DNA from: Candidatus Saccharimonadota bacterium
GTDB taxonomy: Bacteria; Patescibacteriota; Saccharimonadia; Saccharimonadales; Saccharimonadaceae
Direction of reading: 5' to 3'
NCBI GenBank assembly: GCA_017512095.1
Contig: JAFWHC010000001.1
Coordinates: forward strand, 71,099 to 135,098
Length of the DNA: 64,000 nucleotides
Shown here: positions 10 to 58,514 of the stretch, in pieces
Layout of the letters: every line of letters begins with the position of its first letter
Numbering within the stretch: position 1 is the stretch's first letter
Program-made: the position numbers and the translations under genes
Notes under the pieces: model-generated
The model's input: only the letters and a program-made list of their open reading frames with translations
Told to the model about the DNA's origin: nothing
The model's database searches: none

Positions 10-531
10 TTATTTGGATTGTTTTTTGAGAAGATCGCGGATTTCTTTGAGAAGCGCGGTCTGGTCTTCTTCGACTTTAGTTTCGGCTTCTTCCTTTTTG
101 TCTTCTTTTTTCTTGGCGAGTTTTTCAGCGCGTTCGCGCATTTTGTTGAGCGTGCGGACCATGAGGAAGATAACGAAGGCGATAACGAGGAAATTAACGG
201 CGGCCTGGAGGAAATTGCCGTAGTTTACGGTGGCGGGTTCAACGCCTTCAATGTAGGCCGGGATGGTGAATTTTAGTCCAGAGAAGTCAAAGCCGCCGAT
301 AATCATGGAGATGACAGGCATAACAATGTCGTTGACGAGAGAAGTTACGATGGCAGTGAAGGCTGCGCCGATAATCATACCGACGGCGAGATCCATGACT
401 GAGCCGCGATTAATAAATTCTTTAAATTCTTTAAGCACTTTAGGCTCCTTTTTCTTTAAATTATTGTTAAAGTCCGCCTGTTTTTCGAGCAGTTCGGCGG
501 CTTTTGCTTTGAGATTGGATTCTTTTCCCAT
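10..531 (-). CDS. mscL: Large-conductance mechanosensitive channel MscL
   Basis: FKEFINRGSVMDLAVGMIIGAAFTAIVTSLVNDIVMP and NYGNFLQAAVNFLVIAFVIF are the MscL TM1/TM2 signatures; C-terminal LLKEIRDLL. Confidence 0.96.
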   Translation of the reverse strand: MGKESNLKAKAAELLEKQADFNNNLKKKEPKVLKEFKEFINRGSVMDLAVGMIIGAAFTAIVTSLVNDIVMPVISMIIGGFDFSGLKFTIPAYIEGVEPATVNYGNFLQAAVNFLVIAFVIFLMVRTLNKMRERAEKLAKKKEDKKEEAETKVEEDQTALLKEIRDLLKKQSK

Positions 532-567
532 ATTGTGATTATATCATGGAATGGATGGAAAAAGAAA

Positions 568-1182
568 TTAGTTTGATTCGGAGAAGTTATAGAAAGTGTC
601 GCCAAGGCGTTTTAGAGAGTTGGTTGAATCGTTGAGATATGCTTTAATGGCGGAGTTCGTGGTTTTGTTGGAAATTGTGGATTCGATATTGATGATGTAT
701 CGGATTTGGAAATACATTTCTGAAGCGTAGCGGCGGTCCAAGATGCCGTTTAAGCGAGCGGATTCAAGAGACGATGTGGTGTCGCTTAGGATTTTTGTGT
801 CACTTGAAGTGGCGGTGATGGCGGTTGGGTCGGCGCCGAGTTCGGTGAGGTATGTTGTGCTTCTAGAGGAAATGTCAGTGAGAAGAGTCGAGAAAGATGT
901 TCCGGTTGAACGGAGAGAAGAGGAACGAACGGAGCCGTTATAGGTTGTGATGGTTTTGATGAGCTCGTCGGAGTATACTTTGAGGCGGCCGAATTCGGTA
1001 GAGGCAGTGGACTCAGGCGTGCTGGGGGAAGAGCCAGCTACGGAAACGAGAACGATGAGAAGTAAGATGACGCCGGCTAAAGCGCCGATGATGATTTTCA
1101 TTTTTTTGTCAAAGAAGCCAGTGTTTTGCGCAGGTTTTTTGACCCCGGCGGAGATTTGGTTTAGATATTCTAAATCGTTCAT
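568..1182 (-). CDS. Hypothetical single-pass membrane protein with helical extracellular domain
   Basis: 204 aa ORF, TM segment IIIGALAGVILLLIVLVSVAG, own TG-T-TATACT promoter (1192-1200), divergent from dnaG. Confidence 0.75.
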   Translation of the reverse strand: MNDLEYLNQISAGVKKPAQNTGFFDKKMKIIIGALAGVILLLIVLVSVAGSSPSTPESTASTEFGRLKVYSDELIKTITTYNGSVRSSSLRSTGTSFSTLLTDISSRSTTYLTELGADPTAITATSSDTKILSDTTSSLESARLNGILDRRYASEMYFQIRYIINIESTISNKTTNSAIKAYLNDSTNSLKRLGDTFYNFSESN

Positions 1183-1231
1183 GTTAAGACTAGTATAACA
1201 TAAAACCTAAGAAAGGTGATATACTGATTAT

Positions 1232-2884
1232 ATGAATGATGCGAAGGAGGAGATTAAAGCAAGGTTGCCGGTTGAAGATGTGATTTCTCAATATATTGAA
1301 CTGAAACGGGCAGGAAGGACGCTGAAAGGGAGATCGCCTTGGGGTGTAGATAAGACACCGTCGTTTATGGTTTCGCCGGATAAGGGGATTTGGCATGATT
1401 TTTCCGCGAATAAGGGCGGTGACATTTTTACGTTTGTGATGGAGGTGGAAGGGATTAGCTTTAAGGAGGCGCTTGAGAAATTGGCGGCGCAAGCCGGAGT
1501 GGACATTTCGCGATATGCGGGCGGGGATGCGAAAATGGCGCAGAGAAAAGTGAGGGCGAAGGAGGCGCTGGAGCTTGCAACGAAGTATTATCAATTCTGT
1601 CTTTCTAAGTCGAAGAAAGTTTCTGAATACGTATTTTATAAACGAAATCTAAATCGTGGAACCGTGGAGACCTTTCGGATTGGGTATGCGCCGGCGGAGG
1701 GGAGAGCTTGTAAAAAATTTTTGATGAGCCGTGGGTATAGCGAAGCAGAACTGAAGGATGCGGGATTGCTTAACCAATACGGCGGGGATATGTTTAGAGG
1801 ACGAATGATGGTGCCATTTATTGATAGTTCTGGGGTGATTGGTTTTACTGCTAGAATTGTTGATAAGCAGCAATCTGCTTCTCAAGACCAAGGTCCCAAG
1901 TATCTTAATACTTCAGATACGTTGCTTTTTAATAAGAGTCGGTTTGTGTTTGGACTAGCGCAGGCGAAGGAAGCGATTCGGAGAAATGGGTTTGTGGTGA
2001 TTGTGGAAGGGAATATGGATGTGATTTCTAGCCATCAAGCTGGAGTAAAAGAAGCGGTAGCGACAAGCGGAACGGCGATGACGGAACAGCATCTCAAAAT
2101 TTTGTCAAGGCTTACGAATGATATTCGATTGGCGTATGATGGAGATGATGCTGGAGTGAAGGCGACGGAGCGTGCGATTATGATGGCTGGAGATCTTGGC
2201 ATAAATTTGACAGTGATTTCCGATTATCACGGTGCGAAGGACCCAGACGAGTTGATTCAAAGAGGTTCGGAACTTTGGCAAAAAGCCGTAAACGAGCGAA
2301 AGCCGGCAGTGGAGTGGCTACTTGATAAGTATGAGGAAAAAGTCGATCTTAAAACTGGGTTTGGGAAACGAGAATATTCAGATGTGGCGCTTAGGTTGCT
2401 TGATTTTGTAAAAGATAAAATTGAACGGGCACACTACGAAGAAGTAGTGGCGAGAAGGTTGGGAGTGTCGCGAGAAGATTTGAGAGGGAAAGAAGGGGAT
2501 TTGGAAAGAAAGTTGCAAGAAAAACCAAAAAGACGGTTAAAGAAAGCGAAGACGGAAGCAAAAACGGACGTACTGGCCGGGCTTGAAGAGAATATTTTGG
2601 CGATTATGGTATATGGTGGAGTGGAGGGGCCGAGCGAGATTGAAGTGCCGGATGATGAGACGAAGCTCGCGGAGCTTGAGTTGGTGTTTGATAACTTGTA
2701 TAAGGGCTGGGGTCAAGCGGCTTTACAAAAAGAAGTGAATGGGCTTTATACGCGGTTGAAAAATGAGATTGTAAAAAGTGAGATTGATAGATTAACGAAG
2801 GAACTTGAGAGCGAAGATATTGACCCAGAGAGAGAAAAGGAGATTTTGAGAAAGATTTTTGAGTTGCAAAAAAGTAAAAAATAG
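1232..2884 (+). CDS. dnaG: DNA primase
   Basis: KYLNTSDT, TOPRIM IVEGNMDV and LAYDGDDAG motifs; upstream of rpoD. Confidence 0.97.
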   Translation: MNDAKEEIKARLPVEDVISQYIELKRAGRTLKGRSPWGVDKTPSFMVSPDKGIWHDFSANKGGDIFTFVMEVEGISFKEALEKLAAQAGVDISRYAGGDAKMAQRKVRAKEALELATKYYQFCLSKSKKVSEYVFYKRNLNRGTVETFRIGYAPAEGRACKKFLMSRGYSEAELKDAGLLNQYGGDMFRGRMMVPFIDSSGVIGFTARIVDKQQSASQDQGPKYLNTSDTLLFNKSRFVFGLAQAKEAIRRNGFVVIVEGNMDVISSHQAGVKEAVATSGTAMTEQHLKILSRLTNDIRLAYDGDDAGVKATERAIMMAGDLGINLTVISDYHGAKDPDELIQRGSELWQKAVNERKPAVEWLLDKYEEKVDLKTGFGKREYSDVALRLLDFVKDKIERAHYEEVVARRLGVSREDLRGKEGDLERKLQEKPKRRLKKAKTEAKTDVLAGLEENILAIMVYGGVEGPSEIEVPDDETKLAELELVFDNLYKGWGQAALQKEVNGLYTRLKNEIVKSEIDRLTKELESEDIDPEREKEILRKIFELQKSKK

Positions 2885-2899
2885 CTTATAATTTGAGAA

Positions 2900-3856
2900 A
2901 TGGACCAAGAAAAAGACGACTTGCTCCTTGAGCCGCTGGAGCCGGATGAGTTTGATCTGGCGGATGAGGAAGAACTTTCTGACGAAGACCTTGAAATAAC
3001 GGTCGATAATGTTGATGCTTTTGCAGATGATTCAGTGAGATTGTATCTTCGAGAAATCGGAAAAATTCCGCTGCTTACTAATGAGGAAGAGGCAAAGCTC
3101 GCGCAAGAGATTGTGGTTGGTAATCCTAAGGCCAAAAGGAAAATGGTGGAAGCGAACATGCGGCTTGTGGTGTCAATCGCAAAAAGATATTCTGGACGCG
3201 GTCTTGATTTTTTGGATTTGATTCAAGAGGGGAATACGGGACTTTTGCGCGCGGTGGAAAAGTTTGACCCGGATAAAGGGTTCAAGTTTTCGACGTATGC
3301 AACTTGGTGGATTCGACAGGCGATTACGCGGGCGATTGCTGACCAAGCGAGGACGATCCGTATTCCGGTGCACATGGTTGAGACGATTAACAAAGTGCTT
3401 AGAACGACAAGAAAGTTGACAACCGAACTTAATCGGGAGCCAACTAATGAAGAAATCGCCAAGGCGCTTAATATGGACGTCGATAAAATTGATTATGTAA
3501 TGAAGATTAAGCAAGATATTGCGTCGCTTGATGCGAGCGTGGGGCGTGATGGCGACGATGAGGATTCGGTGCTTGGCGATTTTGTCGAAGACGAAGAGAG
3601 GGTGTCGCCGGAAGATTCGGCGGCGAATCAGATTCTTAAGGAACAACTTGCGAAGATTATTTCTACGCTTTCCGATCGTGAGCAGAAGATTATTAAAATG
3701 CGGTTTGGGATTGGTGGTGAGAGACCGCATACGCTTGAGGAAGTTGGGATTGAGTTTTCTGTAACGAGGGAACGGATTCGCCAGATTGAGGCGAAAGCGT
3801 TGTCGAAACTCAGGAAGCATAAGGATACGAAAAAGCTTCATGAATATTTAAAGTAG
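2900..3856 (+). CDS. rpoD: RNA polymerase primary sigma factor (sigma70)
   Basis: [60 protein letters not shown]. Confidence 0.97.
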
Positions 3857-9060: not shown

Positions 9061-9090
9061 AAAAATGTTATGGGGTAAAATAGATTTATT

Positions 9091-10143
9091 ATGGAAGAGG
9101 TAAATAAGAAAACTAAAAAAATAAAAAACCAAGATAATAAAAAAGCCAAAAAGGAGAAGATTGAAAAGAAGGGTGGTGAGAGAAAGAGTGACGAGAAGAA
9201 GAGTGCGAAGAAGGTTGCGCTGATTGTTTTGATTGTTCTAGTAATTTTAGGGGGCGGTGGTTTTGCTTTGAAAACGGTTTTGACAAAAACGACGGTGACA
9301 GCGGAAACGGTGAAGATGCCGGATGATGCGAGGGGGTTCTCTAATTATTTTAAAGAATATCTTTTAAGTAGAGTTAGGGCGGAGAGATTATTTTCTTATA
9401 GCTTTAGAGATTTGTCGGATGATGAAATCTTAAACGAACTGACGGAACTTAAGGATGGGTTTTCGAAAGTTTCTAGGGGGGTGAATAGTGCATATAAAAA
9501 TTCGGAGTATCGTGAGCTGGCGGGAGTAATGGAAAGCGATAGTGCGATTTATCTAACGGCGGTAAGGGAATTAAGAACAGTGATGACTGATGGGGCTTAT
9601 GGTAACGAAGGTGATAGGCAACTTGCGTTTATGCGGAAGGTCGAAGAGACGACGAAAGAACTTAGAAGCGCGCTGTATATTGCAAGGGAGGCGTTTGACG
9701 GTGACGTTTCGGGCTTGAGCTCAAAGGGAGTGCTTTTGTTTAATGGTGTAGCGTTGGTGGAAGTTGGCGGAGGTGTGATGAATATTTTGGTGGGAGATGC
9801 TTCGGAGCCTGTGACGGCTATTTCGACGGATGATATTGACGAAGGGACCGTGAAGCCGATTGAGGCGAGCGGACTTTATGGCTATGTTGGTTCGCGAATT
9901 GTGAGAATTGGCGACGGATTTGAAACGGTGTTGGAAAATGGATGGGTGAAAGATGTAAAAGCGGAAGTAAAGACGAGCGAGGTAACATTCACAACAACAA
10001 AGGTTAGTTTGGTGATGAAAAATGTGTGGAGCCTGGATACGGAATTGAATGGGCAGGGAATTAAAGGACTAGTTAACCAGGAAAAGCATTCGGTGAGTGA
10101 AGGCTTGAATGAGGTAATGAAAGGGCTAGAAGGGAAGAACTGA
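9091..10143 (+). CDS. Hypothetical membrane-anchored protein (Lys-rich N-terminus, one TM)
   Basis: 350 aa ORF, TM VALIVLIVLVILGGGGFAL, TGA/ATG overlap with mutM. Confidence 0.75.
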   Translation: MEEVNKKTKKIKNQDNKKAKKEKIEKKGGERKSDEKKSAKKVALIVLIVLVILGGGGFALKTVLTKTTVTAETVKMPDDARGFSNYFKEYLLSRVRAERLFSYSFRDLSDDEILNELTELKDGFSKVSRGVNSAYKNSEYRELAGVMESDSAIYLTAVRELRTVMTDGAYGNEGDRQLAFMRKVEETTKELRSALYIAREAFDGDVSGLSSKGVLLFNGVALVEVGGGVMNILVGDASEPVTAISTDDIDEGTVKPIEASGLYGYVGSRIVRIGDGFETVLENGWVKDVKAEVKTSEVTFTTTKVSLVMKNVWSLDTELNGQGIKGLVNQEKHSVSEGLNEVMKGLEGKN

Positions 10144-14170: not shown

Positions 14171-14187
14171 TATGATAAAATAATCTC

Positions 14188-14871
14188 ATGGAAAATGAGA
14201 TTATTTTGATTGATAAGCCGAAAGGTATTACGAGTTTTGGAGTAGTGGCGCGGGTGAGGAGAGTGTTGTTGGAGCGAGTGGGGAAGAAGGTGAAAGTTGG
14301 GCATACGGGGACGTTGGATCCGTTTGCGACGGGGCTTTTGATTTTGATGGCGGGGAAGGCGACGAAGAGGTGTTCGGAGTTTATGAAGCTTGATAAGGAG
14401 TATGAGGCGGAGATTCGGCTCGGTGAGACGTCAACAACAGGGGACCCAGAGGGGATTGTACAAAAAAGTTATACAGGCGAGGCACCGGATTTCGAGACGG
14501 TTAAAAAAGTTGTTCAGAGTTTTCAGGGAGAAATAGAGCAAAGAGTGCCGGCGTTTTCGGCGGTGAAGGTTAATGGGCGGCGGGCGTATGACCTTGCGAG
14601 GAAGGGAATTAAGGTAGAGATGCCGGTTCGGAAGGTGAAAATATATGAAATTGAAATTTTGGAGTATAGTTGGCCGGTTCTCAAGATTCGGGCGAAGGTG
14701 TCGTCGGGGACGTATATGAGGACGCTGGGGGAAGATATTGGGGAGAAGCTGGGGACGGGGGCGTATTTGACCGGGCTGAGGAGAACCAAGATTGCAGATT
14801 ATAGAGTGGAGGATGCTATTCAGCTAGAGGCTTTTCTAAATAGTCCTTTTGAGCAGAACAAAAGTTGCTAA
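14188..14871 (+). CDS. truB: tRNA pseudouridine(55) synthase
   Basis: [38 protein letters not shown]. Confidence 0.97.
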
Positions 14872-14900
14872 AAAGACACCTCTGTGATATAATTTGTCAT

Positions 14901-15167
14901 ATGATTAGCAAAGATAAGAAAGCAGAGGCTATCAAGAAGCTCGCGCGTTCCGAAAAGGATGTCGGTTCTCCTGAAGTGCAAGTTGCTATCTTAACCGAGA
15001 GGATTAAGGAAGTAACTGAGCATGTGAAGGCGAATAAACATGATTTTATGGCGAGGCGCGGACTTATGCAGATGGTCGGTAGGAGAAAGAAATTGTTAAA
15101 ATATCTCGAATCGACCAACTTTGAGCTTTACAGGGATACTGTAGCTAAGCTCGGACTTAGAAAATAG
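14901..15167 (+). CDS. rpsO: 30S ribosomal protein S15
   Basis: [39 protein letters not shown]; ATG 14901. Confidence 0.97.
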
Positions 15168-17531: not shown

Positions 17532-17937
17532 GTGAGGTTCCTTTGAGATTAGCGTCGACTTCTTTCAAGAGGGCGAGAGCTTCGGATTTTTTTAGACCGA
17601 GATCACCCATCTTGATAAGGAAGGCGGCGGCGTGTTTTTTGGCAATGGCAAGTTTGGTGCTTTTTAAGAGCTCGCGGTCGGTCGTCACGAATTTGCCGTT
17701 GGTGCGGTCGGTCGTGATGAGATGTTTCTCTTCAAGGAGCCCCAGAGATTTTTGGATCGTATTGGGGTTTACCTTGACGGTGAGGGCTAGCTCGCGGACG
17801 GAAGGGAGTTTGTCTCCCGGTTTGTAGGTCCCGGCGGCGATCAAAAGTTCCAGCTTTTCAGCTAGCTGGAGGTAGATGGCTTTACCACTGCTGAAATTGA
17901 AATGGAGGGCCTCTTCTTTTGATTGTATTACTTGCAT
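17515..17937 (-). CDS. GntR family transcriptional regulator (YtrA subfamily)
   Basis: AIYLQLAE, PGDKLPSVRELA, VNPNTIQK; start placed at ATG 17937 from promoter geometry. Confidence 0.9.
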   Translation of the reverse strand: MQVIQSKEEALHFNFSSGKAIYLQLAEKLELLIAAGTYKPGDKLPSVRELALTVKVNPNTIQKSLGLLEEKHLITTDRTNGKFVTTDRELLKSTKLAIAKKHAAAFLIKMGDLGLKKSEALALLKEVDANLKGTSHEEEI

Positions 17938-17973
17938 AGTACAATAGTACACTAGGTTGCCCTAGTGTGTCAA
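17923..17973 (-). promoter_or_regulatory. gntR-ABC promoter with YtrA-type operator
   Basis: TTGACA (17968-73)-18-TACTAT (17944-49); inverted repeat TTGTACTA-N6-TAATACAA (17923-44) resembles the B. subtilis YtrA site. Confidence 0.75.
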
Positions 17974-18020
17974 GTCGTTTTTTTGACGACTTTATGATAT
18001 AATAGATGGGTATAATAAAT

Positions 18021-25303: not shown

Positions 25304-25325
25304 ACACAAGCATATAATATAGTAT

Positions 25326-30739: not shown

Positions 30740-30778
30740 AAGGTTTTAAAAATGAAAGGCTTATGGTAAAATAGGATT

Positions 30779-33246: not shown

Positions 33247-33269
33247 CCCCATGTGATATAATAATATGT

Positions 33270-34061
33270 GTGAAGATTGTGTTTATCATATTTTGTGTGG
33301 TGCTCGGGGCGGCGTTTGGGAGCTTTGCGTGTTGTCAGGCGTGGCGGATACGGCTCAAGGAGGAGAAGGAGAAGGACCCGGGGAGGAGGAGTGTTTGTCT
33401 TTCTTGTGGGAAGCAGCTTAGGTGGTTTGAGAATGTGCCGATTTTGTCGTGGGTTTTGCAGAAAGGGAAGTGTCGGAAGTGTGGGGCGAAGATTGGAAGG
33501 GCGGAAATCTGTGCGGAGATTTTAGGGTTCGTGAGTTTTGGGCTCATTGCTTGGAAATTTGTCGGTATGGTGCCCACGGAAGTGACGGACGTGGTGGAGT
33601 TTTTTGGGGCGTTAGACCTTGCGAGGATGGTGGCGGCGATGGCGGCGATGGTCGGGCTTTTGATTTTGGCGGTGTATGATGCGAAGTGGCAGGAAATGCC
33701 GGTTTCGATTTTGATTTATACGATTGCGATGGGGTTAGTTTATGCGGTGGTGACTAATGTGACATGGAGCTTGCTTGGAAGCGTAGGGTTGCTTGCGGGA
33801 GTATATTATTTGCTTTATTTCTTTTCGAAGGAGAAATTAGTTGGAGGAGGGGATTGGCTCTTGTGTCTTGCGATTGGGCTATTACTTAGAAAGTGGCAGC
33901 TGGCGCTTTTGGAATTGTTTTTAGCGAATTTTTTGGGAGCAGTGGTTATGTTACCTAAGAAGCGAAGAAAAACGGCGTTTGGACCATTTTTGGTGGTAGC
34001 GTTTGTGGTAATATTTGCGTTTGAAGAAACGCTTCTAGGTGCATTAGCAATAAATTTGTAA
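33270..34061 (+). CDS. pilD: Prepilin peptidase
   Basis: GSFACC, RSVCLSCG, ENVPILSW, GKCRKCG, catalytic YDAK and GGGD. Confidence 0.93.
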   Translation: MKIVFIIFCVVLGAAFGSFACCQAWRIRLKEEKEKDPGRRSVCLSCGKQLRWFENVPILSWVLQKGKCRKCGAKIGRAEICAEILGFVSFGLIAWKFVGMVPTEVTDVVEFFGALDLARMVAAMAAMVGLLILAVYDAKWQEMPVSILIYTIAMGLVYAVVTNVTWSLLGSVGLLAGVYYLLYFFSKEKLVGGGDWLLCLAIGLLLRKWQLALLELFLANFLGAVVMLPKKRRKTAFGPFLVVAFVVIFAFEETLLGALAINL

Positions 34062-34064
34062 GCC

Positions 34065-35033
34065 TTAGTTTAGCTCGGAGTGGAATTTTTCGTGGATTTC
34101 GCGAAGATGTGGGTCGGTGACGTGAGTGTAGATTTGAGTGGTGCTGATGTTGGCATGGCCGAGCATAGCTTGGACGCTACGAAGGTCGGCGCCGTTCATG
34201 AGTAAATCGGTGGCAAAGGAGTGTCTTAATGTGTGCGGGGTGACATGTTTGGTGATGCCGGCAGCTTTGGCGTAGTGGTCAATGATGCGCTGGACTGAGC
34301 GGGGAGTGAGTCGGCGGAAGTCACCGGAGGTGTCGACGGCGTTAAGATGGCGAGAGTTGTTGAGGAAGAGGGCGGGGAGAGAATCATCGCGGACGGCGAG
34401 ATAGTCGCGAGTAGCTTCGGCGGCCGCCTCGCTGATGAAAATCGGGCGATCTTTTTTGCCTTTACCGCGGACGATAAATTCGCGGCGGTCGAGGTTGATG
34501 GAGTCGCGGTTGAGGCTCACAAGTTCGGAGACGCGGAGACCGCCGGAGAAGAGGAGTTCGATGATGGCGCGATCGCGAAGGCCAGATTCGGTGTCGCTAG
34601 GAATGGCGTTCAATAAATCTTCAACTTCGTCAAAATGGAGGAAAGTAACCTGTTTTTTGACGGCGCGAGGTAGGTCGACAAGACTCGGGTCGAGGGTCTT
34701 GATGTTTCTTCTTGTGAGATATTTGAGGAACCCACGGAGGGCGATGAGGTGATAGGCTTGGGTTAGGGCGGAGAGGCCTTCGTCGCGAATGTTGTTAGTG
34801 TACCGGTTGAGCTTTAGGCGATATTTGCGGAGAAGTTCAGGGTCGATTTCTTCTGGTTTGATGTCGTCTTTGCCTAGAATTTCCGAACAAAGGTCGTAAA
34901 AGCGAAAAAGATAAAGACGATAGTTTTCTATAGTTTTTTTTGAACGGCCTTTTTCAACCTCGAGATGCTCGAGAAAATCATTAATCAGTTCGTTAATATT
35001 GGAAATGTTTTCGGTCGTGTCGTTAGTAGCCAT
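34065..35033 (-). CDS. Tyrosine recombinase, chromosomal XerC/XerD type
   Basis: LRDRAIIELLFSGGLRVSEL, VRGKGKK, PHTLRHSFAT, LGHANISTTQIYTHV (R-K-H-R-H-Y intact). Confidence 0.93.
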   Translation of the reverse strand: MATNDTTENISNINELINDFLEHLEVEKGRSKKTIENYRLYLFRFYDLCSEILGKDDIKPEEIDPELLRKYRLKLNRYTNNIRDEGLSALTQAYHLIALRGFLKYLTRRNIKTLDPSLVDLPRAVKKQVTFLHFDEVEDLLNAIPSDTESGLRDRAIIELLFSGGLRVSELVSLNRDSINLDRREFIVRGKGKKDRPIFISEAAAEATRDYLAVRDDSLPALFLNNSRHLNAVDTSGDFRRLTPRSVQRIIDHYAKAAGITKHVTPHTLRHSFATDLLMNGADLRSVQAMLGHANISTTQIYTHVTDPHLREIHEKFHSELN

Positions 35034-35093
35034 AAGAGTATTGTACCATAAAAGTTTTTTCTTTGCAGAGTAGTTTGATGGTATAATGTAGGA

Positions 35094-36110
35094 ATGACGA
35101 TTATTGACTATGTGAGATATTACAAAGACGTGCCTTTGTTCGAGGTGAGTTGGAATCAGATGGACACACTGATAGTAGCGACTTTAAGCTATGCGAAGAT
35201 TCGAGGGTTTCGAAAAGAACGAAGTTTTACGGAATTTATTAGGATGGTGGAGGGGGTGCCGAAAGAAAAGGGAGAAGAATTGTTGGCGGCGAAGATACGA
35301 CAGATTGTGAGGTTATTAAAGAAAACAAAACGTTATGAGAAAGTGACGGTAGAGAACTTTAATGATGTATTGAATGATAAAACGCAGTTTGGGGCGATGA
35401 CATGGAAGGTCGGAAGAAAGAAGATAATTGGCTTTAGAGGAACAGACGGGACAATTATTGGGTGGATAGATTCGTTGAGACTGTCTTGTGAGTGCCCGAC
35501 TAGAGCGCATCTTTTGGCGCGAGATTATTTGGAGAGGGAAATTGACGAGGGCGATGAGGTGATCTTGTGTGGCCATTCAAAGGGAGGGAATTTGGCCGTG
35601 GTGGGAGCGATGATGTTAGACGATGGCAGAAAACGCGCGGTGAAGAAAATCTATAATTTTGATGGCCCGGGGGTGAGAAAAGAACAGTTTGAATCGCGAG
35701 AGTACGGGATGATTAGGCATAAGATAGTGAATATAATGCCAGAGAAATCTTACGTGGGGACGTTAATGCTTTCTGGAGGGAGAACAAAAGTAGTGAAGTC
35801 AAATGCGAAAGGGCTGGCGGTGCATTATCAAACAACTTGGGAGGTTTTTGGCGAAGTGTTTGCTAAAGGGCGACAAGATAAAATTAGCTTGCAATTGCAT
35901 GATAACACGGTAACGAGTTTCATGAGAATTGATAATAGGGAAGTGAAGAGAGTACTAGATGTGATGTATGAAAAGTTCAAGGGGCGAGCAACGGAAAAGG
36001 TGTCTTGGTTAGATATATTAGGAGTGGTTGAGGGTATAAAAGAGATGGATGCAGAAACTAGAAAATGCTTTGGTGAAATTATCGGTAGTCTATTTAGAGG
36101 AGCGCAATAA
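35094..36110 (+). CDS. DUF2974-like alpha/beta hydrolase (lipase-like)
   Basis: FRGTDGTIIGW, GHSKGG nucleophile elbow, YNFDGPG. Confidence 0.85.
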   Translation: MTIIDYVRYYKDVPLFEVSWNQMDTLIVATLSYAKIRGFRKERSFTEFIRMVEGVPKEKGEELLAAKIRQIVRLLKKTKRYEKVTVENFNDVLNDKTQFGAMTWKVGRKKIIGFRGTDGTIIGWIDSLRLSCECPTRAHLLARDYLEREIDEGDEVILCGHSKGGNLAVVGAMMLDDGRKRAVKKIYNFDGPGVRKEQFESREYGMIRHKIVNIMPEKSYVGTLMLSGGRTKVVKSNAKGLAVHYQTTWEVFGEVFAKGRQDKISLQLHDNTVTSFMRIDNREVKRVLDVMYEKFKGRATEKVSWLDILGVVEGIKEMDAETRKCFGEIIGSLFRGAQ

Positions 36111-36150: not shown

Positions 36151-36666
36151 CTAACGGGTATACTTTTCGTTGAGGTCGGAATAGTCATAGAGTTCGTCGT
36201 CGTCAAACCAGAGACGAATTTCTTTTTTAGCTTCTTCAGGAGAGCCGGAAGCGTGGATTAAGTTCGGAACACCGATGCCTTTGGCGTCGGAATAACCGAA
36301 GGACATGTGAGAGTAGTCGCCACGGATGGTGCCCATTTCAGCGGACTTTGGTTCGGTTGGGCCGACGATTTTACGAACGAGCGGGACACATTCGACGCCT
36401 TCAAGAACGATAGCAATGACTGGACCAGTCATCATGTAAGCGACGTTGTAATGGAAGGCTTGTTCGCCGCGGCGAGTAATCATCTGACCGATTTCTTCAT
36501 AGTGGGCGCGGTAATGGTCTTCGGATGGTTTAACCATTTTCATGCCGACGATTTTGAGGCCGACGCGCTCGAAACGTTGGAGGATTTCTCCGGCGAGACC
36601 GCGTTGAACGGCATCTGGTTTTAGAACTACTAGACTGCGTTGGATGAGATCTTTTTCTTTTCCCAT
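36151..36666 (-). CDS. ndk: Nucleoside diphosphate kinase
   Basis: QRSLVVLKPDAVQRGL, GTIRGDY, NLIHASGS. Confidence 0.96.
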   Translation of the reverse strand: MGKEKDLIQRSLVVLKPDAVQRGLAGEILQRFERVGLKIVGMKMVKPSEDHYRAHYEEIGQMITRRGEQAFHYNVAYMMTGPVIAIVLEGVECVPLVRKIVGPTEPKSAEMGTIRGDYSHMSFGYSDAKGIGVPNLIHASGSPEEAKKEIRLWFDDDELYDYSDLNEKYTR

Positions 36667-36707
36667 ATAACTCCTTTTTGAAGATTATACCATATATTAG
36701 AAAAAAA

Positions 36708-36784: not shown

Positions 36785-36828
36785 AGCCGTGGCTATATTA
36801 TAACACAGGTGTGTGATATAATGGTAAT

Positions 36829-37857
36829 ATGAAATTGAGTATTCCGCTGAAGCGGGCAGATAAAGATCGCAAGACCGAGAGAGAGAAAGTTGAGGAGAGA
36901 CGGGAAGAAGTTTTGTCGCGAGGACGGAAGTTTAAATATCCGTTACAATATGCGAAGCATAGGCTTGTAATAAATACCGTAATAATTGCTGTGGTGGGCG
37001 TTGTTTTGCTGGTGGTGGCAGGATGGGCGGCATTATATAAATTCCAAGATATGGGCGATATTATGTATCGCATTTCTTTGGTGTTGCCTGTGCCGGTGGC
37101 AAAAGTGGATGGGAAGAATGTGAGATTTTCTGATTATTTGATGACGGCGAGGAGCAGTTTGACAACACTTGACGTGCAATCGGCTTTTGATGGTAGGGAA
37201 GAAGACTATGGTGCAATTGAAAACGGCTACAAGCGGCAAGCGCTGACGCAGGCGGAGGAATTGACGTATGCTTTGAAACTTGGCGAGGAATTAGGAGTTA
37301 CGGTGTCCGACGATGAAGTTACGGTGGCATTTGATGAGCATAGAAAGGTGGGCGGTGCGGATAGGAGCGAGGAAAGTTTTTTGAAGGTTCTGAACGTAAA
37401 TTTTGGACTTTCTAAAGACGAGTATAAGAGGATGCTTTATCTTTCTTTGATGCGGAGTAAAGTGGCACAGGCTGTGGATAAAGAGGCGGAAGCGACGGCA
37501 AAGAAAGTTGAACAGGCGCTTCGCGAGAATAACGGGGATTTCCAGAAAGTAAAAGAAGCGCTTGGTGATAAAGTGGAGTTTATGACGACGGGTGGGTTGA
37601 TTGATAATAAGAACGTTGATGGTGGCAGGAGCGGGAAGGCAATGACTTTAAATGTTGGTGAGATGTCGGGACGGTTCTTATCAACGAATGGCGACGGATA
37701 TTACTTTGTGAAGACGATAGAAAAGAGCGAAACGCAAGTTAGCTATGTGTCTTTGTATGTGCGATTTACAGAGTTTGCTAAGAAGTTCGAAGAAGTGCAG
37801 ACAGCAGGATTGATTAAAGAATACATCGACATTAAAGAGTTGGATAGTGAAGAATAG
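36829..37857 (+). CDS. SurA/PrsA-like foldase (SurA N-terminal domain, membrane-anchored)
   Basis: TM, PVAKVDGKNV, LGVTVSDDEV, degenerate parvulin region. Confidence 0.72.
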   Translation: MKLSIPLKRADKDRKTEREKVEERREEVLSRGRKFKYPLQYAKHRLVINTVIIAVVGVVLLVVAGWAALYKFQDMGDIMYRISLVLPVPVAKVDGKNVRFSDYLMTARSSLTTLDVQSAFDGREEDYGAIENGYKRQALTQAEELTYALKLGEELGVTVSDDEVTVAFDEHRKVGGADRSEESFLKVLNVNFGLSKDEYKRMLYLSLMRSKVAQAVDKEAEATAKKVEQALRENNGDFQKVKEALGDKVEFMTTGGLIDNKNVDGGRSGKAMTLNVGEMSGRFLSTNGDGYYFVKTIEKSETQVSYVSLYVRFTEFAKKFEEVQTAGLIKEYIDIKELDSEE

Positions 37858-38967: not shown

Positions 38968-39039
38968 TGATAGAGGTGATTATATATTATTTTATAGTTT
39001 TTTTCAAGTATAAAATTTGTATGCTATAATATAAGTACT

Positions 39040-39444
39040 ATGAAAGAGATTCGTGCGGGGTTTAAAAAGATTTTTAGAGATGATAAGGTGTTCCTTTTAG
39101 GGATGGTGGTGCTATTTGCCTTGGGATTGTTGTTGGTTTTGCATACATTTATTCATTTTAAAGCGGGTGGAACGACGATGTATATTGGCTATTCGGACAT
39201 CGGTGGGTTTGATGGGGCCGATCAGATGTCGCTATGGAACTCCGGCGGGTATCGTACGGGTGGTTGGGCCGATATGGTGATTTTTCCGATTCTTGGTTTA
39301 GTGCTAGGAGTGTTGCATAACCTTTTTGCAATTCAAGTGTACGAACGGAGAGGGAAGGGATTTGCGGTGACGATGATATTGGTGTCTATTCTAGTGGCGG
39401 TGGGTGCGTTTGTGCTGCTTTTGAGGTTGCTCGGGGAGATTTAA
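39040..39444 (+). CDS. Hypothetical membrane protein (3 TM)
   Basis: 134 aa, hydrophobic segments, abuts GT2 gene. Confidence 0.75.
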   Translation: MKEIRAGFKKIFRDDKVFLLGMVVLFALGLLLVLHTFIHFKAGGTTMYIGYSDIGGFDGADQMSLWNSGGYRTGGWADMVIFPILGLVLGVLHNLFAIQVYERRGKGFAVTMILVSILVAVGAFVLLLRLLGEI

Positions 39445-41589: not shown

Positions 41590-41659
41590 GTCTTGAGAGT
41601 TCTTTATTTTACGCCCCTAAGGGGGCGTTTTTCTTACTTTATGTTATAATGTAGATATT

Positions 41660-42895
41660 ATGAAATTATCGAAAACTTTTGTTAAAACTTTAAGAGATGC
41701 GCCGAAGGACGAGCAGGCTTTAAATGCGCAGCTTTTAATTCGCGCGGGGTATGTCCATAAAGAGATAGCGGGGGTGTATGATTATTTGCCTTTAGGATTA
41801 AGGGTAATTGAGAATATTAAACGCGTGATTAGGGAAGAGTTAAACGCGATTGGCGCAGAGGAAATGCAGCTGACGGCGTTACAGAATCCAGAACCGTGGA
41901 AGAAAACTGATAGATGGGATACCAAAAAGATGGATGTATGGTTCAAAACTGAGCTTGCTGCGGGAGGGGAACTTGGGCTTGCGCCGACGCATGAAGAACC
42001 GTTGACGAATCTGATGCGAGATTATGTTGCTTCGTATCGGGATTTGCCGGCGCTTGTGTATCAGTTCCAGACAAAGTTTAGGAATGAACTTAGAGCGAAA
42101 TCGGGGATTATGCGGACGCGCGAATTCTTGATGAAAGATTTATACTCCTTTACGACAGATGAGGAAGACCACAAAAGGATTTATGCTGAGGTCGAGGGGG
42201 CGTATAAGCGGATTTATGATCGACTAGGTATCGGTAACGATACATATGAAACATTTGCAAGCGGTGGAGTGTTTTCTAAGTATTCCCATGAATATCAGAC
42301 GTTGCTCCCGGTTGGAGAAGATACGGTTTATTATAATGCCGATAAATCAGTGGTTTTAAATAAAGAAGTGCTAGAGGATGAGGTTTTGAAGGATCTTGGC
42401 GTGACGCGTGAGGAACTTAGCGAGGGAACTGGAGCGGAAGTTGGAAACATTTTTACTCTTAAATATAAATATAGTGAACCACTAGGGCTAAAATTCCAGA
42501 GCAGAGAGGGGAAGCAAGAAACGGTGTTTATGGGGTGCTACGGAATTGGCGTGAGCCGCGTAATGGGGGTGATTGTGGAGAAGTTTGCAGATGAGAAGGG
42601 TTTGGTCTGGCCGGAAGAAGTGGCTCCGTATAAGTATCATTTTGTGGCGATAGGAGAAGAAGGTTTAAGAAAAGCGAACGAGATATACGAAAAGTTTCGC
42701 GAGAAGGATGAGATTTTGTTGGACGATAGAGATGCTCGCTTTGGCGAGAAGATGAGCGATGCGGAGCTGATGGGGTTACCGTATCGAGTAATTATTTCCG
42801 ATCGAACACTTGCCGACGGGGAGGTTGAAGTTGCGGAACGGATGACAGGTAAAACGTATCGGATTGGACTTGACAAGTTCGAGGCTTCTTTGTAA
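41660..42895 (+). CDS. proS: Prolyl-tRNA synthetase (short form without INS editing domain)
   Basis: LLIRAGYV, LAPTHEE, YQFQTKFRNELR, GCYGIGVSR, anticodon-binding domain. Confidence 0.96.
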   Translation: MKLSKTFVKTLRDAPKDEQALNAQLLIRAGYVHKEIAGVYDYLPLGLRVIENIKRVIREELNAIGAEEMQLTALQNPEPWKKTDRWDTKKMDVWFKTELAAGGELGLAPTHEEPLTNLMRDYVASYRDLPALVYQFQTKFRNELRAKSGIMRTREFLMKDLYSFTTDEEDHKRIYAEVEGAYKRIYDRLGIGNDTYETFASGGVFSKYSHEYQTLLPVGEDTVYYNADKSVVLNKEVLEDEVLKDLGVTREELSEGTGAEVGNIFTLKYKYSEPLGLKFQSREGKQETVFMGCYGIGVSRVMGVIVEKFADEKGLVWPEEVAPYKYHFVAIGEEGLRKANEIYEKFREKDEILLDDRDARFGEKMSDAELMGLPYRVIISDRTLADGEVEVAERMTGKTYRIGLDKFEASL

Positions 42896-43390: not shown

Positions 43391-43433
43391 AAAATAAGGC
43401 CCCAAGGGGCTTTATTTTTGTTATAATATGATT

Positions 43434-44285
43434 ATGGATAACCGTTTGAAGCGAATTTATCGTGCGAGCTATTATGGAATTGGGGTGAATTTGTTTTTGG
43501 TGGTCATAAAGATGGCGGTTGGAATGATGTCCGGATCGGTGTCGGTTTTGACTGATGCGATAAATAATGCGACGGACGTTCTGAGTTCGGTTGTGACACT
43601 TGTGGCGACAAAGTTGGCGCAGAAAAAGCCAGATAAAGAACATCCGCATGGGCACGGACGGATTGAATATCTTGCGCAAGTAATTGTGGGGATTATTATT
43701 CTGCTGGTTGGCGTGATGGCGATTGTGCAAAGCGTGCCGAGGGTGGAAAAGCCAGTAGTAGCCAGCTATTCGGCGCTAACATTGGTAGTTATTACAGTTT
43801 CTATAGTTTTGAAGTTTGCAATTTCTCGATACTTTAGGAAGGTTGGGCGCGAAACACAGTCGGGAAGTTTGGAGGCGTCAGGCGTAGATGCGATGTTCGA
43901 TATGCTGTTGACGCTCGGAACGTTGGTTGGGGCGGGGATTAGTTTGGTTTTTAATATTTCGATTGATGGGTGGATTGGGCTAGTGATTGCGGCGTTTATT
44001 ATCAAGACGGCTTTTGAGATTATTTCTGATGGGATGACGGATGTGATTGGTGGAAGGGTGGACGAAAAACTGGCGAGAAAAATTCGCGAGAGAATTCGTG
44101 AACACGAAGAGGTGAAGAAAATCAATAGGCTGATTTTGCATGAGTACGGGCCTGGGAAAACGGTTGGCGCGGTGAGAGTTGAGGTGAAATCTGGGATGGA
44201 GATGAGAGAATTTAGGAAACTTGCGGAGAAGATACAGGACGAGCTTGCGGAGGAGTTTGGAGCAGATATTACAGTCGGGGTTTAA
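43434..44285 (+). CDS. Cation diffusion facilitator family transporter
   Basis: DAINNATDV, KPDKEHPHGHGRIEY, ASGVDAMFD, LHEYGP. Confidence 0.93.
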   Translation: MDNRLKRIYRASYYGIGVNLFLVVIKMAVGMMSGSVSVLTDAINNATDVLSSVVTLVATKLAQKKPDKEHPHGHGRIEYLAQVIVGIIILLVGVMAIVQSVPRVEKPVVASYSALTLVVITVSIVLKFAISRYFRKVGRETQSGSLEASGVDAMFDMLLTLGTLVGAGISLVFNISIDGWIGLVIAAFIIKTAFEIISDGMTDVIGGRVDEKLARKIRERIREHEEVKKINRLILHEYGPGKTVGAVRVEVKSGMEMREFRKLAEKIQDELAEEFGADITVGV

Positions 44286-49750: not shown

Positions 49751-50542
49751 GTGGGGCCAACCGGTTCGGGGAAGACGGGGGTTTCTGTTGCGATAGCGAG
49801 AAAAACTGATGGGGAGATTATTTCTGCGGATTCGCGGACTGTTTATAAAGGAATGGATGTGGGGACGGCGAAACCGACGACAATAGAGCGGGAAGGGGTG
49901 CCGCATTTTGGTTTTGACTTGGTGGAGCCTGATGAACGATTTACGGTGAAAGACTGGAAGGACTATGCGGAGAAAGTAATAGCGGATATAGAAGGTCGCG
50001 GAAATGTGCCGATTGTGGTAGGCGGGACGGGACTTTATGTGGATGCGTTAATTTTTGATTACAAATTTGAAGCTCCGAGTAAGGGATATGGTGTCGAGCG
50101 AGGGGAATGTATAAAAAATTTGAACGGAAAGAACGGAAGTCTAGAACAAAATGATTTGCAGAAATATCCGGATAGACAAAAGATGTGTTCAAAATATAAA
50201 GTTTTTGGGATTTTCTGGGAGCCGGAAGAACTGAAAAAACGATTGTTGATTCGAGCGAATAAAATGTTTAACGATGAGCTTTACGCGGAAACGGAGCAGT
50301 TGGTTAAAAAAAATAGTTTTGAGAATAAAGCAATGACGGGCGATGTTTATGAATTTGCATGGAAATATATGCGGAATGAGATTGGTCGCGAGGAGGCTGT
50401 GAGGTTGACCGCTACTTGTGATTGGCATTTGGCAAAACGGCAAATGACGTGGTTTAAGCGAAATAAGAATATCATGTGGTTGCCGCTTGAAAAAGTGGAG
50501 ACGGCTGTGTTAAAATGTATACAGAATGAGCAAAGAAAATAG
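49751..50542 (+). CDS. miaA: tRNA dimethylallyltransferase (start codon uncertain)
   Basis: GPTGSGKT, IISADSR, GTAKP, VGGTGLY, LAKRQMTWF. Confidence 0.9.
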   Translation: MGPTGSGKTGVSVAIARKTDGEIISADSRTVYKGMDVGTAKPTTIEREGVPHFGFDLVEPDERFTVKDWKDYAEKVIADIEGRGNVPIVVGGTGLYVDALIFDYKFEAPSKGYGVERGECIKNLNGKNGSLEQNDLQKYPDRQKMCSKYKVFGIFWEPEELKKRLLIRANKMFNDELYAETEQLVKKNSFENKAMTGDVYEFAWKYMRNEIGREEAVRLTATCDWHLAKRQMTWFKRNKNIMWLPLEKVETAVLKCIQNEQRK

Positions 50543-53663: not shown

Positions 53664-53664
53664 C

Positions 53665-55156: not shown

Positions 55157-56671
55157 TTATCTTTTGCGATAATTTAAAGCCTCGGTAAGGTGGGCGACGT
55201 CGATTTCTGCGGCGCCGTCTAGGTCGGCGATGGTTTGCGCGACTTTGATAACTTTGAAGTAGGAGCGAGCAGAGAGGTTCAGTTTTTTGGAAGCAGAATC
55301 GAGAAGATTTTCGGCAGCGGGAGTGAGTTTAAGAAGAGACGAAACTTGATGGGAAGAAAGGGAAGAGTTGAAGATGTCGGAACGACCATAGCGAAGGCGT
55401 TGGCGGTTGAGCGCCTCTTTAATATTATTTTTTACAATGTCGTGTTCGGAAGATTTATTTTGCACCGAAGGAGACTTTTGGCGGAGATCGGAGTTGTCGA
55501 CTTTTGCAACCGTGATGTTCATGTCAATACGGTCAAAGAGAGGACCAGAAAGCTTCTTTTGGTAGTTATTGATTTGGACTTGAGTGCAGGTGCATTCATG
55601 TGTAGGGTCGCCTAAGTAACCGCAGGGGCAGGGGTTCATGGTGGCGATGAGCATAAAGTCGGCTGGATAGGTGGTTTTAGCGTTGGCACGAGAAACAGAA
55701 ATCTTTTTATCTTCGAGCGGTTGTCGGAGCGCTTCGAGAATTGAGCGGGGGAATTCGGGAATTTCGTCGAGAAAAAGGACGCCAAGATGGGCGAGAGAAA
55801 TCTCGCCTGGCTCGGCTTTTGTGCCACCGCCGATAATGGAAATAGCTGAGGCGGTGTGGTGTGGGGCGCGAAATGGGCGCGATGAAATGGTGCCATCAGT
55901 CTCGCCGGCGATGGAATGAATTTTAGTGATAGCGATTTGTTCTTCAGGGGAAGGTGGCGGAAGAAGATTGGCCGCAGCGCGGGCTAGAAGAGTTTTGCCG
56001 GCACCTGGTGGGCCAGAAATGAGGATATTATGATGACCAGCGATTGCGACGGCAAGAGCGCGTTTAGCGAAGGATTGACCACGAATATGGTCAAGAATTG
56101 GCGAGTTTTTATCTGTTTTTGTATTTTCTACAACAATTTTGGGATGTTTTTGGATGGTCTGTTCATGCTTTAAATGCAAGAAAAGCTCTTGAAGATTTTT
56201 AACACCGATAACGGTTACGTTGGGTATAAGAGAGGCTTGAGCGAGATTTTCTTCAGGGACATACATCTCGGAAATGTTAGCGATACGGGCAGCTTCGATG
56301 ATGTTAATAATTCCGTGAATGGGGCGCAGGGAACCATTGAGCGAAAGTTCGCCGACGAAGAGTTTATTCTTAAGGTCTTCTTGGCGAAGCTGGCCCGAGA
56401 GAACAAGAACCGTGAGGGCGATGGGTAAGTCGAGGTGAGAGCCATCTTTTAGGAGATCGGCGGGAGCGAGGTTGATCGTGACGCGTTTGTCTGGGAATGA
56501 AAAACCGGAGCTTGTGATGGCGCTTTTGACGCGTTCACGGGCCTCAGAAACGGTTTTATTGGCCATGCCGACGATATTAAAGGCGGGGAGGCCCTTGTTC
56601 ATGTCGCCTTCGACTTCTACGATACGACCTTCGTAGCCGTAGGGGATGGCAGAGTAGGTTTTTGCTATCAT
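55157..56671 (-). CDS. comM: YifB/ComM Mg-chelatase-like AAA+ ATPase
   Basis: EVEGD, GLPAFNIVG, VTINLAPADL, GPPGAGKT, PFRAPHH, LDEIPEF, LSARS. Confidence 0.94.
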   Translation of the reverse strand: MIAKTYSAIPYGYEGRIVEVEGDMNKGLPAFNIVGMANKTVSEARERVKSAITSSGFSFPDKRVTINLAPADLLKDGSHLDLPIALTVLVLSGQLRQEDLKNKLFVGELSLNGSLRPIHGIINIIEAARIANISEMYVPEENLAQASLIPNVTVIGVKNLQELFLHLKHEQTIQKHPKIVVENTKTDKNSPILDHIRGQSFAKRALAVAIAGHHNILISGPPGAGKTLLARAAANLLPPPSPEEQIAITKIHSIAGETDGTISSRPFRAPHHTASAISIIGGGTKAEPGEISLAHLGVLFLDEIPEFPRSILEALRQPLEDKKISVSRANAKTTYPADFMLIATMNPCPCGYLGDPTHECTCTQVQINNYQKKLSGPLFDRIDMNITVAKVDNSDLRQKSPSVQNKSSEHDIVKNNIKEALNRQRLRYGRSDIFNSSLSSHQVSSLLKLTPAAENLLDSASKKLNLSARSYFKVIKVAQTIADLDGAAEIDVAHLTEALNYRKR

Positions 56672-56770
56672 GAGACAAGAATAAAGGAAGTGAGACGAAA
56701 GCGCAAGGAAAAGCGGAATTAAATAAAGGGGTAGCGTTTTATGGGGTTATATGATATAATGAAGGGAGTT

Positions 56771-57545: not shown

Positions 57546-57549
57546 GTAA

Positions 57550-57880
57550 GAGTCGAAAGACAAAATAAACACTAAAAACAAAAAGAGAAAAAATGAAGTA
57601 TAAATAAGGAATAAGCTGGCGGTGCGAATAGGCAATTTCTAGCCATAAATTACATATAGGAATTGCCTTAAGCTTCGCCAGTTTGAGTGAAGCGCTGTTC
57701 GAGGACTTTTCGTTAGTACCTTAAAACAATATAGAACGAAAGGGAATCAACAAGGACATGCTCCACAATTGTGGAGCGGTCAAGCGGCTAGAGCGAGGAA
57801 CAAGGTTGCGGCCAATAGTAAGTTTTAATGCCGGATAACCTCCCTCGCTTTGGTCCAAAGGAGAATAAAATTACGACTTG
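57550..57880 (+). ncRNA. Candidate ~330 nt structured RNA of unknown family
   Basis: At least seven helices visible by eye downstream of the strong promoter (see findings). Confidence 0.6.
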
Positions 57881-57938
57881 GGGGTAAAAAGCAAGCACGC
57901 GATGTACACTTAAACATAAGTGTGATAAAATATAGTAT

Positions 57939-58289
57939 ATGCGTGGCAGAATAGTTCTCGTCTTAAGTATCTTTTCGCTTTTTGGGATACTAGCTATGCT
58001 TAACTATACGACGCCGAAAGATGCTGGTGTCTTAGGTGTTTTAGTATTTTTTACAATGATTTTCACGGTTCTCTTTGGCTTGATGTCGGAGATAGTGAAA
58101 ATTTTTCAGAGGATACTAAAAGACAAAAAGGGGGGAGAGATTTCTGAAAATAAGACGTACATGTATGCTACGGTGCTGGCATTTGGGCCAATTATTTTGC
58201 TGGTGACGCGTTCGATAAGTTTGGCTACGCTTGCGATGACAGTCATTTTTGTGAGCTTGGGTTGTTTTTTAATACACAAAAGAGCGTAA
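57939..58289 (+). CDS. Hypothetical membrane protein (4 TM)
   Basis: 116 aa hydrophobic ORF with leaderless-type promoter. Confidence 0.75.
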   Translation: MRGRIVLVLSIFSLFGILAMLNYTTPKDAGVLGVLVFFTMIFTVLFGLMSEIVKIFQRILKDKKGGEISENKTYMYATVLAFGPIILLVTRSISLATLAMTVIFVSLGCFLIHKRA

Positions 58290-58307
58290 GCGTGATAAAA
58301 TAAGCAT

Positions 58308-58514
58308 ATGTATAATGAGTTTGAGGATGCACTAGCGAGAGACAACACTTCACTTAAAAAAGAGATGGGTGAAGAAGGTTTGAGGGAAATACGTAAAATT
58401 GAAAAAGAGTTTGCGGACGATCCGTACATGTTAAATGTGAAGATTCAAGACATGAGCGACACGTTAATTTTGAAGGCTTTTGGACGCGTGCGGGAGGGGA
58501 GTGAAGTAAAATGA
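58308..58514 (+). CDS. Small hypothetical protein (68 aa)
   Basis: Leaderless-type promoter; ATGA overlap with next gene. Confidence 0.6.
   Translation: MYNEFEDALARDNTSLKKEMGEEGLREIRKIEKEFADDPYMLNVKIQDMSDTLILKAFGRVREGSEVK

Follow-up and report, generated by a model that had tools for sequence, protein, structure and literature searches.

Messenger RNAs without a 5' leader are translated by a known pathway, in which 70S ribosomes and the initiator tRNA recognize the 5' AUG. Among the genomes classified with GeneMarkS-2, those of group C carry a Pribnow box 6-8 nucleotides (nt) before the first genes of operons and Shine-Dalgarno (SD) sites elsewhere, and 25-50% of their transcripts are predicted to be leaderless; as the main text of that study describes them, they belong mostly to the Actinobacteria and Deinococcus-Thermus (Lomsadze et al. 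2018, PMC6028130). Leaderless transcriptomes have also been described for Mycobacterium tuberculosis and M. smegmatis (Cortes et al. 2013, PMC3898074) as well as Deinococcus deserti (de Groot et al. 2014, PMC4007540). Here we report a similar layout of promoters and start codons in a 64,000-nt stretch of DNA (referred to here as the window), which corresponds to positions 71099-135098 of contig C5 in a 624,889-base genome of 8 contigs. The source organism is an uncultured Candidatus Nanosyncoccus-like saccharibacterium (TM7; Patescibacteria, candidate phyla radiation), an epibiont with a genome of ~0.6 Mb and a GC content of 48%. In this genome, a promoter of the extended -10 type abuts the start codon of more than a quarter of the genes, most often with the -10 hexamer ending exactly 6 nt before it. 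With a probability of roughly 0.8, we consider that these genes, called leaderless-type here, would be transcribed into truly leaderless or near-leaderless mRNAs.

In order to quantify this arrangement, we called genes with a home-made caller that uses two codon tables, since the composition of third codon positions switches with the replication strand. This yielded 523 genes at a coding density of 88%, of which 520 entered the start statistics. A genome-wide motif search, which the first-pass annotation of the window had proposed as a check, confirmed a sharp spacing peak at 6 nt. For a count that does not depend on the caller, we took every TGnTAnnnT in the genome and recorded any ATG opening at least 80 codons at spacings (d) of 0-30 nt. 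There were 68 cases at 6 nt, 31 at 7, 15 at 8, 26 at 9 and 13 at 10, compared with 0-10 (typically ~5) at each remaining spacing, and ATG at exactly 6 nt is 10-15 times commoner than at neighboring spacings. At the starts of the longest open reading frames (ORFs), TGnTAnnnT at d=6 precedes 56 of 520 genes, while it occurs in only 0-5 genes at each spacing from 12 to 30 nt and at 0.1% of internal in-frame ATGs. Under slightly wider criteria, 142 of the 520 genes (27%) qualify as leaderless-type when the longest start is taken, against 1.6% of internal in-frame start codons, and they divide into spacings of 6 nt (72 genes), 7 nt (22), 8 nt (15), 9 nt (24), 10 nt (6) and 5 nt (3). Among the 317 genes that plausibly lead a transcription unit, 103-128 (32-40%) are of this type. 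Of all leaderless-type genes, 36 lie no more than 25 nt behind the preceding gene, which places their promoters within the 3' end of that gene; rpoD behind dnaG is one example, its -35 element TTGCAA sitting within the 3' end of dnaG. A chimeric bin was rejected as a source of the pattern, given that the leaderless fraction is 16-47% over the 8 contigs (24-30% if only the four large contigs are taken) and differs little between the two strands, at 26% and 30%.

Within the window, we searched for TAnnnT hexamers with a start codon 5-10 nt downstream that opens at least 45 codons, requiring either the TG extension or at most one mismatch to TATAAT, and the 50 nt upstream of each major ORF were printed and inspected. 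All 16 sites that the first-pass annotation had placed at 6-7 nt from a start codon are present at that spacing, the one at comM being weak. The four sites for which it had given 9 nt (1182, 9091, 39040 and proS at 41660) are as described, and a fifth, at 50526, can be added (Table 1). Of the 61 genes called in the window, 16 are leaderless-type and 1 carries the motif at a downstream start; a strong SD precedes 22 genes and a weak one 5. NCBIfam and Pfam matches confirmed the gene names, and the starts that had been corrected from the pattern, those of rpsO, the gntR-like gene and the cation diffusion facilitator (CDF) transporter, fit the family profiles.

What kind of signal the motif represents can be judged from a logo of the 142 sites aligned on the hexamer. 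It reads T(A/G)TGnTATAAT, with T(A/G)TG at -17 to -14, T in 83% and G in 81% of the sites at the TG positions, and a weak TTGA -35 whose T lies 17 base pairs (bp) upstream of the hexamer. These features identify it as an extended -10 promoter of the sigma-70 type. RpoD (2900-3856, +), the one primary-type sigma factor that the window was found to encode, is short, with 318 amino acids, and aligns only to the C-terminal two-thirds of full-length RpoD profiles; this may be relevant to the heavy reliance on extended -10 elements.

One alternative is that TAnnnT is an A/T-rich, non-SD ribosome-binding site on the mRNA, of the kind seen in GeneMarkS-2 group B, and that transcription starts further upstream. 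The motif does lie 6-9 nt before the start, a distance also typical of ribosome-binding sites, and the genome encodes a four-domain bS1 (C6:3747-4736), a protein that binds A/U-rich leaders. Nevertheless, it is sigma-70, not the ribosome, that reads elements such as the TG extension, the T(A/G)TG context and the TTGA at 17 bp, and the same motif stands before genes that are not translated. Of the 33 tRNA genes, 18 carry TGnTAnnnT 7-20 nt (mostly 7-16 nt) before the mature 5' end, and another four show a plain -10 at 9-15 nt, bringing the total to ~22 of the ~26 tRNAs that lead a unit. Since the motif precedes tRNA genes, it cannot be a ribosome-binding signal. Its distribution over protein-coding genes points the same way: at SD-led first genes the nearest extended -10 is most often 20-40 nt upstream (median, 44 nt), most operon-internal genes have an SD or nothing, and the motif is largely absent from those without a promoter of their own. 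At one such gene, located at 4161, no conserved upstream column was found among orthologues. The defining trait of group B, a single non-SD motif on leadered mRNAs before all genes including operon-internal ones, is thus absent from the source genome. A further argument comes from proS, where the best terminator of the scanned region (a hairpin with its T-tract) ends 13 nt before the extended -10, so that any proS leader must be shorter than ~25 nt. Taken together, we regard a ribosome-binding role of the motif as very improbable.

Given that the motif is a promoter, the tRNA genes are themselves informative. The -10 positions would imply tRNA 5' leaders of only ~0-6 nt, and the transcripts of tRNA-Ser (-10 at 7 nt) and of tRNA-Arg and tRNA-Cys (8 nt) may begin at +1. 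Examples in the window are tRNA-Arg (C5:107806-107882; window 36708-36784, -) and tRNA-Gly (C5:108981-109055; window 37883-37957). The window also encodes a full-length bacterial type A RNase P RNA at 53317-53666 (+; RF00010, 244 bits), directly after the ORF at 52351-53313.

The canonical transcription start is the 7th base after the -10 hexamer (PMC12641261), so that a spacing of 6 nt makes the A of the ATG the canonical +1. In this d=6 class, and independently of how the motif was searched for, a pyrimidine precedes the ATG in 68 of 72 genes (94%; T 61%, C 33%), compared with 55% at the same position in SD-led genes (binomial p = 1e-13). A pyrimidine at -1 followed by a purine at +1 is the preferred context of bacterial transcription starts. 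At d=9, A occupies the 7th position after the -10 in 75% of the genes and follows a pyrimidine in 62%, which would predict a leader of 3 nt. The motif, its spacing, its promoter nature and its conservation are observed here, and we infer the exact start of transcription and the mode of translation.

The d=9 class also bears on the possibility that transcription starts 1-5 nt upstream of the AUG in most cases and that the resulting short stub matters for initiation. In its favor are the 15, 24 and 6 genes at spacings of 8, 9 and 10 nt, the 3-nt leader just mentioned and the unusually variable distance between the -10 and the transcription start site (TSS) in Nanosynbacter lyticus, as found in a 2025 promoter study in Nucleic Acids Research (NAR; PMC12641261). 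The dominant d=6 class, however, has a pyrimidine at -1 and an A at +1 that agree with a start precisely at the AUG, and we therefore consider a general stub improbable. In mycobacterial TSS papers, the operational definition of a leaderless mRNA is a 5' untranslated region (UTR) of 0-5 nt, and genes with such a stub would still be leaderless under it.

The space available upstream is likewise restricted in many places. In divergent pairs separated by at most 90 nt, 29 of 44 genes are leaderless-type. Both -10 boxes of the divergent pair formed by dnaG and the gene at 1182 lie within their shared 49 nt, and the 60-nt gap between the xerD-like and Mbeg1-like genes would leave no room for SD-bearing leaders. 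A contrasting case is ndk, for which the greater distance of the promoter and an AGGAG before the ATG (Table 1) predict a short SD-bearing leader.

To assess conservation, we used 80 RpoD-matching loci from metagenome-assembled genomes (MAGs) labeled "Candidatus Saccharibacteria" and "Candidatus Nanosyncoccus" (77-93% identity, mostly from ruminant gut), in which orthologous starts were placed by tblastn. For dnaG, the -10 lies 6-10 nt before the start in 57 of 60 informative species (62-90% protein identity) and at exactly 6 nt in 36 of them, and for rpoD it lies at 5-8 nt in 70 of 80 species, 67 of which have 7-8 nt. The rpoD -35 is conserved as Ttg among 37 sequences aligned at the orthologous ATG, and the -10 of the gene at 1182 is conserved across 50 orthologous upstream regions. 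Column by column, upstream conservation is confined to tg.TAtAat, the base before the ATG and the ATG itself.

Some observations weigh against the leaderless reading, and part of them would favor a different one, in which genuine promoters stand before ATGs many of which are incidental, the true starts lying downstream behind an SD on leadered mRNAs. The first concerns mscL (window 10-531, -), where the MscL profile begins only at residue 32 of the 173-amino-acid ORF and an internal AAGGAG-N6-GTG at 438 coincides exactly with the profile start; in one relative (L003), the long form of the protein is absent. Some promoter-abutted ATGs, as in mscL, may thus not be the sole start. Second, in 38 further genes (of 180 candidates) the motif is confined to an alternative start downstream of the longest one, and chance alone would account for ~30-35 such downstream-only matches (4.6 candidate starts per gene at a false-positive rate of 1.6%). 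In addition, the comM site is weak, an enrichment of ATG in the leaderless class was sought and not found (95%, against 93% in the SD class), the gene calls are of our own making, and a literature search retrieved no Saccharibacterium TSS map that gives 5' UTR lengths.

Still, downstream starts are hard to reconcile with most of the evidence, and we give this explanation little credence. Family profiles begin within 2-13 residues of the abutted start for dnaG, truB, rpsO, pilT, pilM, pilD and the CDF transporter (Table 1), the spacing between -10 and ATG is kept among the dnaG and rpoD orthologues, and incidental ATGs would not produce the 10-15-fold excess at exactly 6 nt. Even mscL is less adverse than it seems. 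Its N-terminal extension, 31 amino acids rich in K and E, is present as an open frame of variable length in nearly all relatives, in which V and M alternate at the internal start. Close relatives carry TATAAT 6-9 nt before the first ATG of the extension, whereas more distant ones lack such a -10 and have an apparent SD-like sequence before the same ATG, as judged from translated frames; in these, the SD apparently stands at the head of the extension and not inside it. The long form of MscL is therefore probably real, two isoforms arising from leaderless and SD-led initiation are possible, and mscL appears to switch between the two modes of initiation among species.

Returning to the leaderless reading, we asked how the leaderless-type genes relate to the rest of the genome. 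The first-pass annotation had proposed that two initiation classes coexist, which agrees with our data: only 3 of the 142 promoter-abutted genes have an SD, while 168 genes have a strong one (a 5- to 6-mer), and the anti-SD CCUCC is intact in the 16S rRNA (3' end ...GGATTACCTCCTTTCT). Loss of the anti-SD or of bS1 as a cause of the layout was rejected, both being present; the SD pathway is thus kept, and both pathways coexist. The presence of bS1 agrees with Tsurumaki et al. 2022 (PMC9297842). Two other parts of the proposal did not hold. Leaderless initiation had been assigned to core replication, transcription and pilus genes, but the class follows position, that is, whether a gene is the first of its unit or has its own internal promoter. 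The orphan genes had been taken as SD-led, but six hypothetical genes (1182, 9091, 39040, 50526, 57939 and 58308) are leaderless-type.

Based on these results, we propose that the sigma-70 polymerase would work mainly on extended -10 promoters of the form T(A/G)TGnTATAAT, with a weak TTGA -35 at 17 bp. The -10 hexamer would end 6-10 nt (mode, 6 nt) before the start codon in ~27-36% of all genes and in ~32-40% of first genes. Transcription would then start on the A of the AUG in the 6- to 7-nt class, or 2-3 nt before the AUG in the 9- to 10-nt class, generating mRNAs that lack both 5' leader and SD and are presumably bound via their 5'-terminal AUG. Genes inside operons, and a second group of first genes, would instead rely on short leaders of ~13-33 nt whose GGAGG-type SD base-pairs with the intact anti-SD.

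In order to see how far this layout extends among relatives, we counted TGNTATAAT-N6-ATG per genome, with the reversed pattern, which gives 0-2 matches throughout, as control. The source genome contains 38 matches and 24 genomes of the same genus contain 36-106 (0-8 when the spacing is changed to N15), compared with 1-90 per genome in ~95 other genera of the family, 3-11 in 16 other families of the order and 0-25 in 143 genomes from elsewhere in the phylum. Part of this difference in density arises because the perfect extended -10 is itself commoner in the genus, at 143-384 per genome versus 34-86 in other families. Samples of 400 kb from a genome of the same family (G157, 58% GC) and from one of another family (G030, 41.5% GC) likewise peak at 6-7 nt, with a density roughly half that of the source genome. 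Judged by these counts, the layout is a general trait of the Saccharibacteria that many other Patescibacteria share, and this genus has it at 5-10 times the density. It is conceivable, if rather unlikely, that the genus has a near-universal "zero-leader" architecture, in which nearly all primary transcripts, of mRNA and tRNA genes alike, would be driven by extended -10 promoters and start 0-5 nt from their functional 5' end, amplified 5- to 10-fold relative to sister lineages and with orthologues switching between classes at short evolutionary distances, as seems to be the case for mscL. If this were true, two separately tunable translation regulons would be possible, e.g., for host-attached and host-free states, and the Patescibacteria would be a third large leaderless-rich bacterial clade.

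Table 1. Promoter-abutted start codons and related features of the window. Positions and starts are window coordinates; N indicates the number of nt between -10 hexamer and start codon.
Feature	Positions	Strand	Start	Upstream sequence	Family profile	Remarks
mscL	529..546	-	531	tgaTATAAT-cacaat-ATG		spacing 6
Hypothetical 204-aa gene	1180..1200	-	1182	tgtTATACT-N9-ATG		divergent from dnaG
dnaG	1217..1234	+	1232	tgaTATACT-N6-ATG	residue 5 = position 7	
rpoD	2884..2902	+	2900	TATAAT-N7-ATG		no TG
Hypothetical 350-aa gene	9073..9093	+	9091	TAAAAT-N9-ATG		
truB	14173..14190	+	14188	tgaTAAAAT-N6-ATG	residue 3 = position 2	
rpsO (S15)	14885..14903	+	14901	tgaTATAAT-N7-ATG	residues 4-88 = positions 2-86	replaces TTG 14865 as ORF start
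gntR-like	17935..17981	-	17937	TTGACA-N18-TACTAT-N6-ATG		replaces GTG 17952
pilM	25310..25328	+	25326	TATAAT-N7-ATG	residue 13 = position 8	first gene of pilus operon
pilT	30764..30781	+	30779	tggTAAAAT-N6-ATG	residue 8 = position 2	
pilD, prepilin peptidase	33254..33272	+	33270	tgaTATAAT-N7-GTG	residue 11 = position 1	
Divergent pair xerD-like and Mbeg1-like	35031..35096	both				60-nt intergenic region
xerD-like		-	35033	tggTACAAT-N6-ATG		
Mbeg1-like/DUF2974		+	35094	tggTATAAT-N6-ATG		
ndk (36151-36666)	36666..36700	-		tggTATAAT 19 nt upstream, AGGAG 4 nt before ATG		contrast case
SurA_N-like	36814..36831	+	36829	tgaTATAAT-N6-ATG		
Hypothetical 134-aa gene	39022..39042	+	39040	tgcTATAAT-N9-ATG		
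proS	41611..41662	+	41660	hairpin 41611-41628 and T-tract, then tgtTATAAT-N9-ATG		
CDF transporter	43419..43436	+	43434	tgtTATAAT-N6-ATG	residue 14 = position 3	start rather than 43428
Hypothetical 201-aa gene	50508..50528	+	50526	tgtTAAAAT-N9-ATG		
comM	56669..56686	-	56671	TATTCT-N6-ATG		weak, no TG; below motif criteria
Hypothetical 116-aa ORF	57923..57941	+	57939	tgaTAAAAT-N7-ATG		missed by gene caller
Hypothetical 68-aa gene	58293..58310	+	58308	tgaTAAAAT-N6-ATG		

Additionally, two gene assignments and the base composition deserve mention. The gene at 53699-53911, named rpmI in the first-pass annotation, has its profile match to L28 and not to L35. At infC (54560-54988, -), position 30 of the IF3 profile aligns with residue 2 of the called ORF; a start codon other than ATG, GTG or TTG is usual for this gene, and the true start is probably upstream at such a codon. 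The GC skew is extreme and tied to the strand, not to gene orientation, with values of +0.24 to +0.45 in the window and +0.15 to +0.40 over the contigs. Genes on the G-rich strand have third-position frequencies of 0.40 for G (G3) and 0.11 for C (C3), while those on the opposite strand have C3 0.48 and G3 0.11. The C-rich strand carries 372 of the 523 called genes, and dnaA (C5:7017-7487) and the 16S gene are on the G-rich strand. The polarity of the skew is unusual, or else most genes run head-on to replication; in two other Saccharibacteria samples, the skew is only 0.03-0.10 and genes are mostly on the G-rich strand.

A search of the available literature found no paper that deals with leaderless mRNAs or with the use of SD sites in either Saccharibacteria or Patescibacteria. 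Leaders are not commented on in the NAR 2025 promoter study, which used 188 TSSs of TM7x (PMC12641261), and a preprint on the TM7x transcriptome mentions neither promoters nor UTRs. Expression cassettes for Saccharibacteria have so far been built on the promoter regions of tuf and rpsJ (PMC10633639). Genetic work on Saccharibacteria and other Patescibacteria is only now becoming feasible, and TRTGnTATAAT-N6-ATG as a sufficient native expression signal would aid the design of genetic tools. If a third or more of the transcription units are leaderless, as seems probable, this would also aid the annotation of start codons in thousands of MAGs. Beyond these uses, the layout has a bearing on translation control in organisms with reduced ribosomes. 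It would place a deep-branching, small-genome lineage beside the Actinobacteria and Deinococcus, and this bears on the question whether leaderless initiation is an ancestral trait or arose repeatedly.

The mechanism itself is known elsewhere, and the Saccharibacteria would be an added lineage whose architecture matches group C. With regard to the tRNA genes, those of Nanoarchaeum equitans are reportedly promoter-abutted and leaderless, in work attributed to Randau and colleagues in 2008. The tRNA promoters described here are similar in lying 7-16 nt before the mature 5' end, but they are bacterial and not archaeal, and a full RNase P RNA is kept, so processing is not abolished. GUG is common among the leaderless starts of mycobacteria, whereas 95% of the starts in the leaderless class are ATG here. 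As in mycobacteria and D. deserti, a large minority or more of the genes would be leaderless beside SD-led genes and an intact anti-SD. Those systems were, however, established by differential RNA sequencing and proteogenomics in large GC-rich genomes, while ours is deduced from the sequence of a 0.6-Mb genome with 48% GC. Compared with group C, in whose description the main text does not include Saccharibacteria (PMC6028130), the promoters here join a weak -35 to a strong extended -10 of the TRTGn type, and internal promoters are often embedded in the 3' end of the gene before (36 leaderless-type genes with gaps of at most 25 nt). The resemblance to group C is nonetheless close, since here, too, the -10 is localized at first genes, with a modal distance of 6 nt and in ~32-40% of them, while SD sites are found elsewhere.

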